DNA from: a virus
Taxonomy: Duplodnaviria; Heunggongvirae; Uroviricota; Caudoviricetes
DNA: 6,432 bases
IMG/VR virus record: IMGVR_UViG_2526164634_000019
Direction: 5' to 3' (one strand)
Position numbers and translations under genes: made by a program. Numbering within the stretch: the stretch's first letter is position 1; every line of letters begins with the position of its first letter. Of this stretch, positions 1-6,432 are shown in pieces. The notes beneath the pieces were generated by a model, which was not told the origin of the DNA, did no database searches, and saw nothing but the letters and a program-made list of their open reading frames with translations.

Positions 1-1
1 T

Positions 2-1461
2 GTCACCTGCCCGTCAAAATACCACGCCACAACAGAGAACGGTCATCCGAATCCCAAATGGAACGGGGCCACCATGCGCGACTCCAGCGATTACCTGGTT
101 AACACGTTTTTTGCGGCTGTCCGCAAAAAACTGAACCGCGACGGTCTGCGCTGGTATGGCATCCGCACGGTGGAGCCTCACCATGACGGCACCGTGCACT
201 GGCATATGATGGTCTTTGCTCATCCGGAAGAAATCGACACCATTGTGTCCCACACCCGCGATATTGCCATTCAGGAAGACCGCCACGAGCTGGGCGATGA
301 CATAACTCCGCGCTTTAAGGCGGAGTACGTCGACGGCTCAAAAGGCACACCAACCAGCTACATCGCCACCTACATCGGAAGAACCTGGACAGCCACGCCG
401 TGGATGGCATCGACCCGAAAACGGGCAAGCCACGCGTTGACCACGAAACCGGAAAATCAATGGCCGAGAGCGTGGAGCGCGCCATCGGCTGGGCGCGCCT
501 TCACCGGGTCCGCCAGTTCCAGTTCTTTGGCATCCCCTCCCGTCAGGTGTGGCGTGAACTGCGCCGCCTTGCCAGCCAGATGGCACGCAACCCGGAAGGC
601 CCGCAACGACTGAAGGACGACGCAATGGATGCGGTACTCGCTGCCGCTGATGCCGGGTGTTTTGCCTCCTACATTGAAAAACAGGGTGGCGTACTTGTTC
701 CACGCAAAGACTACCTGATTCGCACCGCCTACGACCTCGCAGATGAGCTGAACGATTACGGCGAACAGAGCGTACAGATTTACGGGATCTGGTCACCACT
801 CATCGGGGAGTCCTCCCGTGTGTGCACGCATCCGGATAACTGGAAGCTGGTAAGACGTAAACCGGAAGCGGAAGACAGCGCCCGCGAAAATGGTTTTGAC
901 CTTCAGGGCGGCCCTGCCGCCCCTTGGACTCGTGGCAATAACTGTCCCCGTGTACAGGAAACAGGCAACAACGGGACAGAACAGCCGGAAGAACGGCCAG
1001 CACCGTGGCCGCAGCTTCCTGACGGCGTTGAAGTAAATGAATGGATGCGCTCACTGAAACGGCACGAACGCCGGGCGCTGATGCGTTCGCTTCGTGACAA
1101 ACAGGCAAAAAACAGCAGCGATGAAATGCAGAACTGGACACAGAGCCGCAAACAGCAGCGGCCTTTGCCTGATAACCACGAGTTACTCGCTAAAGAATGG
1201 CGGGAGTCTGCTGAATCTCTCGGCCTGCATATCGGTGAACAACAGATGCAGCACCTGTTACGGGGCGGCAGCCTGTACGTTGACGGCAGCATCATTGCAC
1301 CGCAGGGATTTGAAATTGTACGCAAACCGGATACCCGCCCGGACAGCCGAATCACGCAGCTCTGGCAGCGTCTGAGCCGTAATCATGGCGTAAGCAGCAC
1401 GGAGATCCGCCATAACCCGGTCGCCAGCTATCTGGCACAGCTGGGGGCGATCAGACCCTGA
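2..1461 (+). pseudogene. HUH rolling-circle replication endonuclease (phage P2 gpA family); 5' end outside window; apparent 1-bp frameshift near 377-381
   Basis: Frame 2 is open from the window edge and gives ...TCPSKYHATTENGHP...GIRTVEPHHDGTVHWHMMVF (HUH motif HWH) ...GTPTSYIATYIG (paired catalytic Tyr, YxxxY). At GGAAG (377-381) this frame becomes low-complexity Ala/Ser/Arg-rich and stops at 613. Frame 1, closed by a TAA at 316-318, takes over at 379 with protein-like KNLDSHAVDGIDPKTGKPRVDHETGK... and runs to TGA at 1459-1461. Restoring one A (GGAAAG) would give a continuous YIATYIGKNLDS, analogous to phiX174 gpA YVAKYVNKK. ORF track pieces are 74..613 and 400..1461. Confidence 0.75.
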
Positions 1462-1507
1462 AGCCGCCGCACGCCTGGCATCCACACTTCAGCAGGACCA
1501 GAACACC

Positions 1508-1711
1508 ATGAAAACACCCGTTACCGTGCTTTCTGACATGCTGCGCGCCATCCGCGACGCAGAGCACGCACAGAGAATCAGTGAAACCACTGAACGCGCC
1601 AGCCGCAAAGCAGACCTGCTGCGGGGTGGCCTGACCAGTGGAAACAAAAAACAGACAGAAACGGGACTCACGAATCCCGTAAATGAGCAAAAAACGCGCA
1701 GTGATATATGA
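1508..1711 (+). CDS. hypothetical small protein (67 aa), basic/hydrophilic, downstream of gene A
   Basis: ATG at 1508 with a weak AGGA 12 nt upstream. Occupies the position of small ORFs that follow A in P2-like phages. Its 3' end overlaps the first palindromic site. No recognisable domain; could be non-coding. Confidence 0.3.
   Translation: MKTPVTVLSDMLRAIRDAEHAQRISETTERASRKADLLRGGLTSGNKKQTETGLTNPVNEQKTRSDI
1661..1680. promoter_or_regulatory. 20-bp palindromic operator-like site ACGGGACT-CACG-AATCCCGT (one mismatch)
   Basis: Inverted repeat read directly: 8-bp arms separated by 4 bp. Near-identical to the site at 1734-1753 and 73 bp (about 7 helical turns) away from it. Confidence 0.5.
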
Positions 1712-1733
1712 AGCGCGCACAAAACAGGCAAAA

Positions 1734-1753
1734 ACGGGATTTCAGAATCCCGT
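1734..1753. promoter_or_regulatory. 20-bp perfect palindromic operator-like site ACGGGATT-TCAG-AATCCCGT overlapping the putative stbA promoter
   Basis: Perfect 8-bp inverted arms with 4-bp spacer, 35 bp upstream of the stbA ATG. Flanked by a possible -35 TTCAGA and an AT-rich -10 (TAATTAAT). Candidate binding site for the StbB/ParR-like protein (autoregulation or centromere) or for another repressor. Confidence 0.5.
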
Positions 1754-1787
1754 AAACGATTAATTAATCAACATAAGGAAAATCGAC

Positions 1788-2747
1788 ATGAAAATTTGTA
1801 TCGACGACGGCTCCACCAACATCAAGCTGGCATGGACTGAGAACGGCGAACGCCGCAACGCCATCAGCCCGAACAGCTTCAAGTCGGAATGGTCTGCGCC
1901 GTTCGGTGGCACGCAGCCCGCGAACTACATGCTTGATGGCGTGCGCTATGGTTTTGATCCGGTCAGCGATCGCTTTGTCCAGACGACCGACACGCAATAC
2001 CAGTACAGCGATGTGAATGTCATTGCCATTCATCACGCGCTGGTCAAATCAGGCATCACACCACAGGAGGTGGATGTGGTTGTCACCCTGCCACTGAGCG
2101 AGTATTTCGACACAAACGCACAGCCGGACATGGCCAACATCAACCGCAAAAAAGCGAACGTTATGCGCCCGGTGGAATACCAGAACGGCGAAGCATTCAC
2201 TATCCGTAATGTACGGGTTATGCCTGAATCCATTCCGGCTGGCTTTAAAGCACTGGCTGACATGAGTCCGTTTGAATCCCTGCTGATTGTGGATTTAGGT
2301 GGAACCACGCTGGATGTGGCAAAGGTTCAGGGACAACTGGCAGGTATCAGCCAGGTGTTTTGCGATCCACACGTAGGCGTTTCCCTGATGGCCGATGCAG
2401 TACTGTCGGTGATGGCCACTAACGGTATGCGTACCAGTCACCACATCGCCAATACCATTATCGAACATCGCCATGATGAAGCCTGGCTGCGCCAGCACAT
2501 CCACAATGACGCGCATTACGCCAGCCTGATGGCGGTTATTCGTGAAAAGGAAGAAACACTGAAACAACGCGTGATCCGCGCGCTGGCGGGTTTTTCGGGT
2601 TACGGGCGGGTGATGCTTGTCGGTGGAGGGGCGGAGATTGTGGCACCCGCTATCCGCGAAGTCTGCGGAGTTAATGCGACTTTCATCGCGGACGGGGTGC
2701 CACAGTTTGCTCTGGTTAATGGGCTGTACGCAATGGACAAGGAGTAA
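1788..2747 (+). CDS. stbA: actin-like ATPase of type II plasmid partition systems (StbA/ParM family)
   Basis: 319-aa ORF with SD AAGGA 8 nt upstream of the ATG. N-terminus MKICIDDGSTNIKLAW and motifs VMPESIPAG, LIVDLGGTTLD, VMLVGGGAE, LVNG match the actin-fold phosphate/adenosine motifs and my recollection of R100 StbA (MLVFIDDGSTNIKLQW...). Not verified by database search. Confidence 0.85.
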   Translation: MKICIDDGSTNIKLAWTENGERRNAISPNSFKSEWSAPFGGTQPANYMLDGVRYGFDPVSDRFVQTTDTQYQYSDVNVIAIHHALVKSGITPQEVDVVVTLPLSEYFDTNAQPDMANINRKKANVMRPVEYQNGEAFTIRNVRVMPESIPAGFKALADMSPFESLLIVDLGGTTLDVAKVQGQLAGISQVFCDPHVGVSLMADAVLSVMATNGMRTSHHIANTIIEHRHDEAWLRQHIHNDAHYASLMAVIREKEETLKQRVIRALAGFSGYGRVMLVGGGAEIVAPAIREVCGVNATFIADGVPQFALVNGLYAMDKE

Positions 2748-2751
2748 ACCA

Positions 2752-3066
2752 ATGACGACACCAACCAGACGGATAAGTTTCTATCTGAAGCCCGCCGCCG
2801 TCAAGAGTGAACAGGAGGCGTGCAATTACCTCGATAGCCTGCCAGCCTCCGAACGCAGCCGCGCGCAACGCGCGGCCTTTCTGGCTGGGCTAGCGCTCAT
2901 AAAGCGCAACCCAGCATTTACCTACTGGATGGCCGAATGGCCAGAGGACAACCTCCCCTTCAATACCGTTAGCATCAAGGAAACATACCAGGATAATCAG
3001 CCTAGCGGAGTTGAATGCAATTTTTATAAAATAAAAAAGAATATTCAGACCTTATTCCCAGAATAA
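2752..3066 (+). CDS. stbB: StbB/ParR-like partition adaptor (likely ribbon-helix-helix DNA-binding protein), 104 aa
   Basis: ATG at 2752 preceded by SD AAGGAG (2739-2744), 4 bp after the stbA stop, so translationally coupled. The track ORF 2617..3066 uses an unlikely TTG start inside stbA. Sequence MTTPTRRISFYLKPAAV...SLPASERSRAQRAAFLAGLALIK resembles StbB/ParR N-terminal regions as I recall them. The last 25 or so codons lie in AT-rich DNA. Confidence 0.75.
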   Translation: MTTPTRRISFYLKPAAVKSEQEACNYLDSLPASERSRAQRAAFLAGLALIKRNPAFTYWMAEWPEDNLPFNTVSIKETYQDNQPSGVECNFYKIKKNIQTLFPE

Positions 3067-3114
3067 TCTGATAATTGTATGTGAACTAATAAAATACAGA
3101 CCAACACATCATTC

Positions 3115-3139
3115 TGGCACCCTTGCTAACAGGGTGCCA
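3115..3139. terminator. hairpin between convergent genes (9-bp stem TGGCACCCT/AGGGTGCCA, 7-nt loop), probable bidirectional terminator
   Basis: Perfect inverted repeat read directly, followed on the plus strand by TGTTTC. Located 49 bp after the stbB stop and 10 bp after the stop of the minus-strand gene ending at 3150. Confidence 0.5.
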
Positions 3140-3149
3140 ATGTTTCAAA

Positions 3150-3992
3150 TCATGATGAAATTGCCGAAGTTTTTTTATCGTGCTGAAGTACCGCAAATGC
3201 CATTAAAACCTCAAGAGAATAGCGGCGATAATACTTAACAAAACCATAATAAAATACTCGGGATGCAGCAATACAAAACAAGAGAAGAAAACAAAAAGGT
3301 AACAGTCTGATATTTATATCTATTAAAAAGGATAGAAGGAGCAGGAACATAAGCAACCAGACTGAAGCGAGAAAAACAAATGTAATGTTTCTACAAAAAC
3401 CATACAAAGCAACATAGTTTTGCATTTTCACCTGATGATTTTTAGAATGTTCATACACATAATGATAAGCAAGGCGAAAAAGATCGCCCCTCAAGCCCTT
3501 ACGTCGATATAGCGTAGATACAGAAAAAACATTTATATAACCATCTCGTATTTGCGGCCAAAAGACTTTAATAAGTATAGAATGCAGTGTGGTTTTATGA
3601 TGTTCTGCTTTATCAAAAGCTGATACAGGAAATAAAAAAACTCCACGAATAAAATTAACTATACTGAACTTAGTATTATGTCGTTTTATTTTCAGGGAGC
3701 TTCTTTTAGAAAACAGATAAATTGAAGGATACCCAAGTTTACTGTTCATGTATTTTTCAATTAAACAGGATGATAGAATAGATATGAAGTGACCTGAAAT
3801 ATATGATAGAACGATTAATACCACATATATAAATACACTTATTATTTCTTTATATTTCAGGATATGGTTAAGAATACCTTCTATATAAACAGGGTTAATT
3901 TCAATAGAAAACAAAAAAAGGATAAACAGGAATAACCCACCTGGAATTAGATAGCCCAAAAAGTCATAAAATGAAAACGGATTCTGTGTCAC
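3150..3992 (-). CDS. hypothetical polytopic membrane protein (280 aa; about 4 predicted TM helices flanking a roughly 125-aa basic central domain)
   Basis: Long minus-strand ORF in AT-rich DNA with a GTG start at 3992 preceded by SD-like AGGGGGAA. Strongly hydrophobic segments at roughly aa 9-29, 49-73, 205-227 and 233-255. Starts 39 bp downstream of the preceding gene stop, so it looks operonic. No recognisable catalytic motif by eye. Confidence 0.7.
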   Translation of the reverse strand: MTQNPFSFYDFLGYLIPGGLFLFILFLFSIEINPVYIEGILNHILKYKEIISVFIYVVLIVLSYISGHFISILSSCLIEKYMNSKLGYPSIYLFSKRSSLKIKRHNTKFSIVNFIRGVFLFPVSAFDKAEHHKTTLHSILIKVFWPQIRDGYINVFSVSTLYRRKGLRGDLFRLAYHYVYEHSKNHQVKMQNYVALYGFCRNITFVFLASVWLLMFLLLLSFLIDINIRLLPFCFLLLFCIAASRVFYYGFVKYYRRYSLEVLMAFAVLQHDKKTSAISS

Positions 3993-4031
3993 ACTTCCCC
4001 CTGTGTTACTTGTAAATTAAAGGGTAAAACA

Positions 4032-4529
4032 TTATTTGTTTTTCCGTAAAGGATTAGCTTTCCATCTTCTTACTAACCATTCGAATTCTTGATATGTAGT
4101 ATCCGAATTAATGCTTTCTCTGATTGCTTTAATTAATGGCTCGGCAATATCATATGTCTCTACAACTGTTGTGTAAGATGTTCTTTTTATCATTTTTTCA
4201 TCATAAATACCTTCACGAATACTTACAGCAACTCGCTCGTAAAAATTTAAAATATATTGAAATTTTCGACGCTCGGCCATTTCTTCATCTGTTATTATGC
4301 AACCATCACAAGGAAAAACATAAGAACGAAATGATTTGCCTGAACGATGCACTTGTTTCAGGGTATGCAATGACTCTATATATTGCATATCTTGCCGACT
4401 CTCAAAAAGAAAGTTGGCCGTTTGAGTTTTTTTTGCGGTACGCACATTGTAGATAATGGTTCCAATGGCAACCAAAACGCCAAGCAGAACAATAGCATTG
4501 CTGATGATTTGTAGTGTTATTGGGTTCAT
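4032..4529 (-). CDS. hypothetical single-pass membrane protein (165 aa; N-terminal TM helix plus about 135-aa soluble domain)
   Basis: ATG at 4529. N-terminal ITLQIISNAIVLLGVLVAIGTIIY is a clear TM/signal-anchor segment, followed by a charged soluble domain. AT-rich and co-oriented with the downstream polytopic membrane protein gene. Confidence 0.7.
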   Translation of the reverse strand: MNPITLQIISNAIVLLGVLVAIGTIIYNVRTAKKTQTANFLFESRQDMQYIESLHTLKQVHRSGKSFRSYVFPCDGCIITDEEMAERRKFQYILNFYERVAVSIREGIYDEKMIKRTSYTTVVETYDIAEPLIKAIRESINSDTTYQEFEWLVRRWKANPLRKNK

Positions 4530-4549
4530 CCTATTTCATCCATAAAAAA

Positions 4550-4570
4550 GGCGGGGAGCAAATCCCCGCC
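4550..4570 (-). terminator. intrinsic-terminator-like hairpin (8-bp GC-rich stem GGCGGGGA/TCCCCGCC, 5-nt loop) followed on the minus strand by T6
   Basis: Read directly. On the minus strand the hairpin is followed by TTTTTT (plus 4544-4549) and lies only about 14 nt upstream of the ATG at 4529, which leaves no room for a promoter between terminator and gene. Confidence 0.55.
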
Positions 4571-4590
4571 TCATTAGAGGTCAACGTAGC

Positions 4591-4626
4591 TTAGAAACCA
4601 TCAAATTCATCATACATTTTTTTCAT
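4591..4626 (-). other. candidate 11-codon leader ORF (MKKMYDEFDGF) with strong SD, upstream of the terminator hairpin
   Basis: Minus-strand ATG at 4626-4624 preceded by GAGGGGG with a 5-nt spacer; stop TAA at 4593-4591, 20 nt before the hairpin. The arrangement promoter, leader ORF, terminator, structural genes resembles an attenuator. Could be coincidental. Confidence 0.25.
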
Positions 4627-4678
4627 ATCAACCCCCTCATAGAAATCATAACCACGTTTTGTGGTTTTTGTGACGTAT

Positions 4679-4707
4679 AAACTACATCAAAGGCAAGCCA
4701 CGGTCAA
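4679..4707 (-). promoter_or_regulatory. candidate sigma70 promoter for the leader and membrane-protein operon (-35 TTGACC, 17-bp spacer, -10 TAGTTT)
   Basis: Minus-strand TTGACC (plus 4707-4702) and TAGTTT (plus 4684-4679) with a 17-bp spacer; the -10 keeps the conserved T1, A2, T6. Predicted from sequence only. Confidence 0.35.
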
Positions 4708-4726
4708 ATATATAGGCATGCTTACC

Positions 4727-4756
4727 TGCACAAAAGTGCACAAATTTGCACAATTT
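4727..4756. repeat. three tandem 10-bp direct repeats TGCACAA(A)nn at the right edge of the AT-rich island
   Basis: TGCACAAAAG / TGCACAAATT / TGCACAATTT in helical phase, read directly. The middle copy contains the palindrome GTGCAC. Confidence 0.5.
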
Positions 4757-5127
4757 TTTTGAACGACTTTTTACCCTTCCGGCCCGCATGGCGGCTGGAT
4801 CCGTCAAGGATCCGTGCGTGCACAAAAAAACGCGCTTTTTCTGCGCGCAGGTGACGGGGGAACAGCCCGCGTTTCAGGGGGTAAATAGCATTCCCTGAAC
4901 GATGTCGCAGAGATAGAACAGAATGGCTGTATTTCTCACGCTGAGCGTGAAAAAGACGTGAGGGCTTTTGATTTGATGGGGTGAAAGGTAAGGCCGTCAA
5001 AATCGCACTGAGACGGCGAGAACATGCAGTCAACGCGGTGGGATTGCGTAAGAGTCTGACTGTCGATGATGGCAATCAGCAGGAAAGCGTCGTGAAATTA
5101 TCTGACTGATACAGGAGCTGGAGAGTC

Positions 5128-5150
5128 GGGGCATAAATTTTTTATGCCCC
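5128..5150. terminator. inverted repeat GGGGCATAAA-TTT-TTTATGCCCC, 28 bp downstream of the portal gene stop
   Basis: 10-bp stem with 3-nt loop read directly. No flanking U-tract on either strand, so it may be a terminator for the leftward late operon or a protein-binding or packaging site. Confidence 0.4.
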
Positions 5151-5177
5151 GGCGAAGCAGCAGACAAGCGAAGCGCG

Positions 5178-5747
5178 TCAGGATGTGGGCTGGGTGTCTA
5201 ACAGTGCGTAAGGGTTAAAGCGGATCACCTCTTCGCCAAGCCAGTCATTGATGTGCTTCATGGCCTCCATGACGGGCATCAGCTCGTTAATTGCGTAAAC
5301 CCGCGCGGCCTTCTCCACATCACCAAACGCACTTTTTTCGCCCGGCATCGCCCCCATCAGTTGCGGCGGAACGCGGTGCGCAGCCAGCACATCATCACGG
5401 GATGCCGCCTTAACATTCATGAACTCATCCTTTGCGGTGATCTGCTGGAACGGCAAAATTTGCACCCCTTCTTTGCCCCCGTTGGGCGCATGAATGAGCA
5501 CGTTTTTAAATGCACCACCACCACGCGCACCCTGTAACGTTTCTTTCAGGGAGTCCATGCTTTCGCGGTTTACCTGCGCTGCACCGATGTAGATGATGCA
5601 CCCGGCGTGGGATCCGTTGTCGTAGTACAGTTTTCTGAACATGTCCGCCGAATGAGAAAGGCTGGCCGAGAGTAATGCGCCAAGATATTCCGGCATGCCG
5701 TAGATTTCCTGGTTAATATCCGGATTCATCAGGTGGCACACTTTGCC
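5178..5747 (-). CDS. phage portal protein (P2 gpQ-like), C-terminal part only; 5' portion separated by IS10 insertion
   Basis: Minus-strand ORF ending at the stop at 5180-5178. Translation ...HRVPPQLMGAMPGEKSAFGDVEKAARVYAINEL...WLGEEVIRFNPYALLDT resembles the C-terminus of P2-family portal proteins (from memory). The frame runs straight into the IS10 terminal repeat at 5748 and hits a stop inside IS10 at 5760-5762, so the gene is interrupted. Confidence 0.7.
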   Translation of the reverse strand, partial: GKVCHLMNPDINQEIYGMPEYLGALLSASLSHSADMFRKLYYDNGSHAGCIIYIGAAQVNRESMDSLKETLQGARGGGAFKNVLIHAPNGGKEGVQILPFQQITAKDEFMNVKAASRDDVLAAHRVPPQLMGAMPGEKSAFGDVEKAARVYAINELMPVMEAMKHINDWLGEEVIRFNPYALLDTQPTS

Positions 5748-5770
5748 CTGATGAATCCCCTAATGATTTT
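5748..5770. repeat. IS10 outside-end terminal inverted repeat
   Basis: Exact match to the 23-bp IS10 outside end as remembered. Confidence 0.85.
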
Positions 5771-5793
5771 TATCAAAATCATTAAGTTAAGGT

Positions 5794-5862
5794 AGATACA
5801 CATCTTGTCATATGATCAAATGGTTTCGCCAAAAATCAATAATCAGACAACAAAATGTGCGA
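5794..5862 (-). ncRNA. IS10 RNA-OUT antisense RNA (predicted position)
   Basis: Placed from established IS10 biology: pOUT starts near element position 115 and RNA-OUT runs about 69 nt outward, overlapping the transposase start (RNA-IN). The Dam site GATC at 5814-5817 lies in the pIN region. Not verified independently. Confidence 0.4.
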
Positions 5863-6432
5863 ACTCGATATTTTACACGACTCTCTTTACCAATTCTGCC
5901 CCGAATTACACTTAAAACGACTCAACAGCTTAACGTTGGCTTGCCACGCCTTACTTGACTGTAAAACTCTCACTCTTACCGAACTTGGCCGTAACCTGCC
6001 AACCAAAGCGAGAACAAAACATAACATCAAACGAATCGACCGATTGTTAGGTAATCGTCACCTCCACAAAGAGCGACTCGCTGTATACCGTTGGCATGCT
6101 AGCTTTATCTGTTCGGGCAATACGATGCCCATTGTACTTGTTGACTGGTCTGATATCCGTGAGCAAAAACGGCTTATGGTATTGCGAGCTTCAGTCGCAC
6201 TACACGGTCGTTCTGTTACTCTTTATGAGAAAGCGTTCCCGCTTTCAGAGCAATGTTCAAAGAAAGCTCATGACCAATTTCTAGCCGACCTTGCGAGCAT
6301 TCTACCGAGTAACACCACACCGCTCATTGTCAGTGATGCTGGCTTTAAAGTGCCATGGTATAAATCCGTTGAGAAGCTGGGTTGGTACTGGTTAAGTCGA
6401 GTAAGAGGAAAAGTACAATATGCAGACCTAGG
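5855..6432 (+). CDS. IS10 transposase, N-terminal 192 codons; 3' end beyond window
   Basis: ATG at 5855; frame open to the window end. Translation MCELDILHDSLYQFCPELHLKRLNSLTLACHALLDCKTLTLTELGRNLPTKARTKHNIKRIDRLLGNRHLHKERLAVYRWHASF... matches IS10 transposase. Absent from the ORF track because no stop falls in the window. Confidence 0.9.
   Translation, partial: MCELDILHDSLYQFCPELHLKRLNSLTLACHALLDCKTLTLTELGRNLPTKARTKHNIKRIDRLLGNRHLHKERLAVYRWHASFICSGNTMPIVLVDWSDIREQKRLMVLRASVALHGRSVTLYEKAFPLSEQCSKKAHDQFLADLASILPSNTTPLIVSDAGFKVPWYKSVEKLGWYWLSRVRGKVQYADL

Follow-up and report, generated by a model that had tools for sequence, protein, structure and literature searches.

Two private single-base indels in replication gene A of a defective P88-like prophage in Escherichia coli DEC12D: pseudogene or assembly error

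Does the replication gene A of a P2-like prophage in E. coli DEC12D carry a genuine frameshift directly behind its catalytic tyrosines, or is the break a mistake in the assembled sequence? The question arises from a stretch of 6,432 bp (the window), which is the entire draft WGS contig AIHD01000044.1 of assembly GCA_000250275.2, dated 2012; the contig is bounded by repeats. An initial annotation, made from the sequence letters, had described the frame break, combined it with an IS10 insertion in the portal gene into a picture of a cryptic prophage, and kept a sequencing error as a caveat. The features of the window are collected in Table 1.

Table 1. Features of contig AIHD01000044.1 with their coordinates in the window
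Feature	Position	Strand	Remarks
Gene A, 3' 60%	1..1711	+	Replication endonuclease, HUH rolling-circle initiator, P88-like prophage
HUH motif codons His-Trp-His (CAC TGG CAT)	197..205	+	Aligned to HWH of P2 A
Active-site pair Y491-I-A-T-Y495 (P88 numbering), TAC 359-361 and 371-373	359..373	+	Aligned to P2 Y450/Y454
Out-of-frame tail, 77 codons and stop TGA 611-613	380..613	+	Frame-2 translation
Frame-1 ORF, homologous to the middle part of GpA	400..1461	+	EHX44538.1 (353 aa), separately annotated
Candidate replication origin within gene A	904..953	+	50-nt island conserved across Peduoviridae; P2 ori alignment
Second private indel, extra G at 1449, one base past a G5 run (GGGGGC^ATC to GGGGGCGATC)	1443..1449	+	Alignments
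Final 87 GpA codons, frame 2 again	1450..1711	+	From ATG 1508 annotated as 67-aa ORF EHX44539.1
parM	1788-2747
Plasmid_stab_B partition gene	2752-3066
Two cargo genes	3150-3992 and 4032-4529	-
Non-coding DNA, about 650 nt	Between cargo genes and portal gene
Portal gene, 3' 190 codons	5178..5747	-	PF04860 on product; IS truncates gene
IS10/ISVsa5 element, left 685 nt	5748..6432	+	Continues past contig end

Gene A and its two indels

The nucleotide sequence of gene A in phages P88, vB_EcoM-569R5 and P88_4B11 is 96-97% identical to that of the window. In these phages the gene is a CDS of 2,823 nt without joins that ends at the window equivalent of 1711, the normal gene A stop; its 5' 1,111 nt, counted from the P88-type start, lie off the contig. 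Over positions 189-316 of its 321, the Pfam profile PF05840 (Phage_GPA) matched the frame-2 product with 195.5 bits, against a cut-off of 31.4. For an intact relative of 946 aa the match reached 435 bits over positions 1-321, the domain occupying residues 185-509, and the deletion site lies five profile positions short of the domain end. After the YxxxY pair, I-x-K-N comes next in both P2 A and the P88-type protein according to the protein alignment. The two tyrosines of P2 A are reportedly its nicking and joining residues. The assignment of the gene to the P2 family was borne out by the profile match and the alignment with P2 A; a sequence search of the PDB found no relative of the GpA protein.

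The window reads G377 G378 A379 A380 G381 where the relatives read GGAAAG, which shortens an A3 run to A2. Alignment with P88, vB_EcoM-569R5 and P88_4B11 showed exactly one A to be absent at 378-380. The deletion was confirmed by a pairwise alignment over bases 1-5747 with a prophage in the complete genome of E. coli 13KWH46, which is collinear with these bases and 98.6% identical; only two gaps occur in the 5,747 nt. Frame 2 (2-613, ...GTPTSYIATYIGRTWTATP...) is protein-like through ...SYIATYIG and then continues as RTWTATPW... to the TGA, while frame 1 (...KNLDSHAVDGIDPKTGK...) takes over from about position 380 and stays open to 1461. The frame is lost directly after Y491-x3-Y495-I-G497: the deletion destroys the codon of the motif lysine, K498, which becomes AGA (Arg) in the written frame, and both tyrosines are retained. 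The frame 2 to frame 1 switch at 377-381 and the unrelated C-terminus ending at 613, both noticed in the initial annotation, were thus seen again in the sequence and in the alignments with relatives. Its prediction that one restored A would give a continuous active-site region also held; the restored sequence is YIATYIGKNLDSHAVDG, in which the H corresponds to R in all five relatives aligned.

It had been considered that intact homologues might genuinely end near this site. They do not: P2 A runs for 307 residues past the second tyrosine and P88 A for 445. The two proteins share blocks past the shift (W..R..QF..G.P...RELR.L and AAADxGxFAxYI..QGG..VPR), which suggests that the lost part matters.

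The deletion was then sought in other genomes. A 40-nt probe over the deletion site was covered to at least 80% by 1,387 complete E. coli records, and none of them gave a gap-free 40/40 match; the best full-length matches spanned 41 nt with 97.6% identity and one gap. Strings of 24-27 nt carrying the deletion did not occur in GTDB species genomes, IMG/VR or JGI metagenome contigs, where the intact string, as a positive control, matched at least 120 IMG/VR loci. At the site the run is AAA or longer in every one of the 137 other loci examined; 120 of these, from IMG/VR, had been chosen by the intact string, and only the other 17 form an independent test. The deletion is far beyond chance.

A second 1-bp indel is an addition to the single frameshift observed earlier. 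In the same alignments, the relatives have GGGGGC-ATC where the window has GGGGGCGATC at 1443-1452, the extra G sitting 1,071 nt downstream of the A deletion. None of 1,354 complete E. coli records has this insertion, nor does any of the 121 other loci spanning the site; GTDB representatives and IMG/VR lack it as well. The homologous frame path runs in frame 2 to 379, in frame 1 from 380 to 1448, and in frame 2 again from 1450 to 1711. The two indels explain the split annotation of the depositors, in which a 353-aa ORF ("bacteriophage replication protein") ends at 1461 and a 67-aa ORF at 1711; the TGA at 1461 is reached only through the extra G. Functionally, neither indel makes up for the other, since frame 2 has already ended at 613. 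When both were corrected, an open ORF of 569 codons with no stops was obtained, which differs from the closest relative by 21 synonymous and 5 non-synonymous codons. Judged by this pattern, the corrected gene A shows no decay and looks fully selected.

Gene A probably also contains the replication origin of the prophage. The island at 904-953 aligns with the annotated ori nick site of the P2 record (29892), which lies within P2 gene A, and the homologue of the P2 nick position falls at about 926/927. Among the matches listed, it is the only segment of the window matched in distant Peduoviridae (Klebsiella, Salmonella, Yersinia and Escherichia phages), with about 90% identity. Given this alignment and conservation, the origin inside the coding sequence is probably intact and downstream of the frameshift.

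Portal insertion, variable region and lesions in relatives

The IS10 insertion in the portal gene was found as the initial annotation had described it. An IS10/ISVsa5-type end lies at 5748 inside the gene, with the terminal repeat CTGATGAATCCCCTAATG... and a transposase ORF from 5855; over its 685 nt the IS matches reference IS copies exactly, without a single indel. The truncated portal is collinear with the intact 348-aa portal of the 13KWH46 prophage. The prophage is therefore defective through this insertion, independently of gene A. Nine portal-defective relatives were found among the matches listed. Eight of them have a full-length gene A (940-946 aa); the ninth is a metagenome scaffold with several fragmented genes, in which gene A is broken as well. 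The truncated portal ORF was also tried as a pointer to sister assemblies of the same prophage, and it led to unrelated prophages with portal frameshifts of their own.

Portal lesions of another kind occur in the family. In five relatives (L136-L139 and L142) the portal gene, at locus coordinates of about 9504-10552, is broken into two ORFs, one of 164-165 aa and one of 183 aa. Four different small indels in GC-rich, non-homopolymer contexts account for this: +GC, -C, -G (common to L137 and L142) and another -G. Since these indels differ, portal inactivation has recurred independently in the P88-like prophage family. Frameshifted essential genes were seen in read-based (Logan) assemblies of relatives too.

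In the window, the cargo pair occupies a variable slot that separates the partition genes from the cos/portal region. The first cargo product is a 280-aa multi-pass membrane protein with a weak PADLOC match to Csx27 (E=1e-5), which probably reflects transmembrane similarity only; the second is a DUF4760 protein. The exact sequences of both are present on more than 1,000 contigs. The pair could be a putative defence or lysogenic-conversion module. In the non-coding DNA adjoining the portal gene, GGTGACGGGGGAACAGCCC at 4850-4868 agrees with the 19-nt cohesive end of P2 at 13 of 19 positions and is a weak cos candidate. From about 2750 on, across cargo, cos region and portal, the window shows only five mismatches to one complete genome (13KWH46).

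The gene A and parM region (1-3100) is highly polymorphic: among about 125 relatives, 554 sites vary in 1,711 nt. It is also finely mosaic, common blocks measuring about 130 nt, a pattern that indicates intense recombination among P88-like prophages in this region. Relative to 125 relatives, the first 3.1 kb of the window form a mosaic of 19 segments. When every locus was analysed in this way, the window had 20 segments and four private sites, and 13-21 segments were normal for family members with a nearest neighbour at about 98% identity. Nine of the 125 other public loci have 1-bp indels of their own here, nearly all of them homopolymer length changes and mostly in A6 runs. Two such runs near the 3' end of gene A (1646-1651 and 1689-1694) differ by one base in length in six other public assemblies, and the window has the common length at both; these two runs are hot spots for slippage or sequencing error.

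Compared with 137 relatives, the window holds three private substitutions in 5.7 kb (118, 618 and 2616), against two private indels. The substitutions at 118 and 618 are synonymous and lie in gene A. The one at 2616 (C in the window, G in 93 of 93 relatives) is non-synonymous and changes V277 of ParM to L, so that this ParM sequence is unique to the contig in a collection of 15 billion proteins. Exact look-ups of ParM and of the 353-aa fragment found both on AIHD01000044.1 alone.

Genuine lesion or consensus error

Gene A is best explained, with a probability of roughly one half, as a recently inactivated pseudogene in an already defective P88-like (Xuanwuvirus) prophage of DEC12D. An intact GpA, as an HUH rolling-circle initiator, would nick the origin within its own coding sequence and become linked to the 5' end via one of its two tyrosines, so starting replication of the phage DNA. 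The loss of one A from the AAA run would shift the frame one codon past G497. The written product would then begin with about 497 native residues, among them the HUH motif, both tyrosines and almost all of the Pfam GPA nuclease domain, and end in 77 unrelated ones, and a C-terminal region of about 443 residues with the blocks conserved to P2 would be lost. Such a truncated GpA is probably inactive, its function being abolished by the C-terminal loss. The extra G at 1449 would fall in a part already untranslated. With the portal cut by IS10 and gene A broken, the element would neither replicate nor package its DNA, while parM, its partner gene and the cargo genes would remain intact.

The two indels, their uniqueness, the layout of the domains and the IS insertion are observations; that the indels exist in the DNA of the cell, and not in the assembly only, is inferred on this reading. 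The stop at 613 and the deletion are present in the sequence, and the conserved P2/P88-type blocks behind the shift suggest that the missing part is of importance to the protein. The prophage was already defective through the insertion at 5748, and independent single-base frameshifts in essential genes are frequent in this prophage family. Slippage ordinarily produces mutations such as A3 to A2. As a consensus error this change would be unusual, because all 48 homopolymers of at least 5 nt in bases 1-5747 have the same length as in the closest complete genome, and because the IS is free of errors. On the other hand, both indels are private to one draft contig of 2012. Two private indels against three private substitutions are far above the ratio of about 1:10 at which indels and substitutions arise in spontaneous E. 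coli mutation. The 21:5 codon pattern without stops is that of a gene under full selection, and eight of the nine portal-defective relatives among the matches listed have kept gene A at full length. Moreover, the extra G lies one base past the G5 run and is not a simple expansion of it; an extra G one flow past a homopolymer resembles a carry-over artefact of pyrosequencing.

The sequencing-error caveat accordingly carries about as much weight as real decay, with chances somewhat short of even. One or both indels would then be consensus errors in the WGS contig, and the actual prophage of DEC12D would have an intact gene A. One A of the A3 run would have been missed and a surplus G read one flow cycle past the G5 run, so that the real sequence would read GGAAAG and GGGGGCATC, whereas a pseudogene would read GGAAG and GGGGGCGATC. 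The prophage would be defective solely via the portal insertion. Many observations are in line with this. The source is a 6.4-kb draft contig between repeats, from which alone the split 353-aa product is recorded, and neither indel occurs in some 1,350-1,390 complete E. coli genomes or three other collections. The excess of private indels over what the three private substitutions would lead one to expect fits errors as well. Both corrections together yield a perfect ORF with a purifying-selection pattern, and both indels touch homopolymers, A3 in one case and, one base away, G5 in the other. The nine indel-bearing loci among 125 indicate that such discrepancies are common in public assemblies. 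DEC12D sequencing may have involved 454 reads, an assumption to which little weight is attached.

The error explanation has its own difficulties. Runs of at least 6 nt, the favoured sites of homopolymer errors, were miscalled in none of 19 cases. The under-call of a 3-mer in a consensus would need very low coverage, and two errors within 1.1 kb, with none in the other 4 kb, would call for locally frequent errors. A mixed case, with one real indel and one error, is also possible. The earlier picture of a defective prophage is partly supported: the portal insertion is present, and the frameshift, private to a draft contig and in a gene otherwise undecayed, is about as likely to be an error as a real lesion.

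A chimeric consensus, in which reads of two paralogous P2-like prophages of DEC12D were joined during assembly and so gave rise to both the mosaic and the indels, is very improbable. The contig begins in the middle of gene A, its exact ParM and 353-aa fragment are recorded from AIHD01000044.1 alone, and its first 3.1 kb are finely mosaic with 19 segments against 125 relatives, all of which would fit a merger. However, 13-21 segments are normal for family members with a nearest neighbour at about 98%, and the merging of two real copies would not yield alleles absent from every other copy. The mosaic (20 segments, four private sites) is typical of the family, and the chimera was not supported.

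It is least credible of all that the arrangement is functional, either by programmed frameshifting or recoding at 377-381 or as a deliberately split or truncated initiator. In its favour, the break lies five profile positions from the GPA end and leaves the catalytic domain nearly complete, and the new frame happens by chance to replace the motif lysine with arginine. Yet the shift occurs in none of about 1,390 complete E. coli records, AAA or longer is found in 137 of 137 other loci (17 of them independent), and the stop at 611-613 and the second indel at 1449 rule out a restoration of the frame. A programmed ribosomal frameshift was rejected: the site lacks conservation, 371-385, including ATC GGA AGA ACC, holds no X XXY YYZ heptamer, and the frame is broken again at 1449. 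In the split-initiator version, a nuclease-only N-terminal protein with the HUH motif and both tyrosines would be retained for another role, for instance to nick the origin of incoming related phages. It is very improbable that both indels are real and that the host has retained the nuclease-only GpA fragment, with K498R and its new tail of 77 residues, as a trans-acting nickase which, in a non-packaging prophage, would interfere at the origin of incoming P2-like phages in company with the intact partition and cargo genes. A variant private to one contig gives no evidence of selective retention. P2 A acts in cis.

If the pseudogene is real, DEC12D carries one more P2-family prophage that lost its cis-acting replication initiator after an IS insertion in the portal gene and kept its partition and accessory genes intact, which is the expected route of prophage decay. 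If the indels are artefacts, split phage replication entries of the EHX44538.1 and EHX44539.1 type in older drafts should not be taken for biology. Either reading is ordinary and matters little; frameshifted prophage genes are well known from draft assemblies, whether through decay or through error, and GenBank already lists the split ORFs. The practical gain is a corrected anatomy of the gene, with two indels in place of one and a probable origin at 904-953.

Relation to P2, P88 and decaying prophages

By nucleotide identity and by synteny over the replication, partition and portal region, the prophage is a member of Xuanwuvirus (P88-like) in the Peduoviridae. Bases 1-1500 are 96-97% identical to P88 and other Xuanwuvirus phages. 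P88, Xuanwuvirus and prophage relatives share with the window the order gene A, parM, Plasmid_stab_B gene, variable cargo, cos region and portal. Over 1-1711, the P88 replication endonuclease gene (YP_009113059.1, 940 aa) and its Xuanwuvirus and prophage relatives are 96-98% identical to the window. They have an uninterrupted gene A of 940-946 codons, whereas the window has one A fewer at 378-380 and an extra G at 1449.

Decay of gene A is seen elsewhere in this group: it is truncated or deleted in four P88-like prophages of other E. coli assemblies. In decaying P2-like prophages elsewhere each lesion is different, and none has the two indels or the IS10 insertion site of the window.

The protein of P2 gene A (NP_046795.1, 761 aa) is the founding member of PF05840 and a cis-acting HUH rolling-circle initiator. 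Its HUH motif, YxxxY pair, downstream blocks and in-gene origin nick region all align with the window. The P88-type protein exceeds it by about 180 residues, with extensions at both termini, and its overall protein similarity to P2 A is moderate only; the window copy, unlike P2 A, is frame-disrupted. Judged by its profile match, HUH motif, both tyrosines and internal origin, gene A is a gpA of the P88/P2 type; the lysine expected after the tyrosines reads Arg in the written frame, and an intact ORF is lacking. As written, it is a pseudogene or a mis-sequenced copy of a Phage_GPA family member, and not an intact member.
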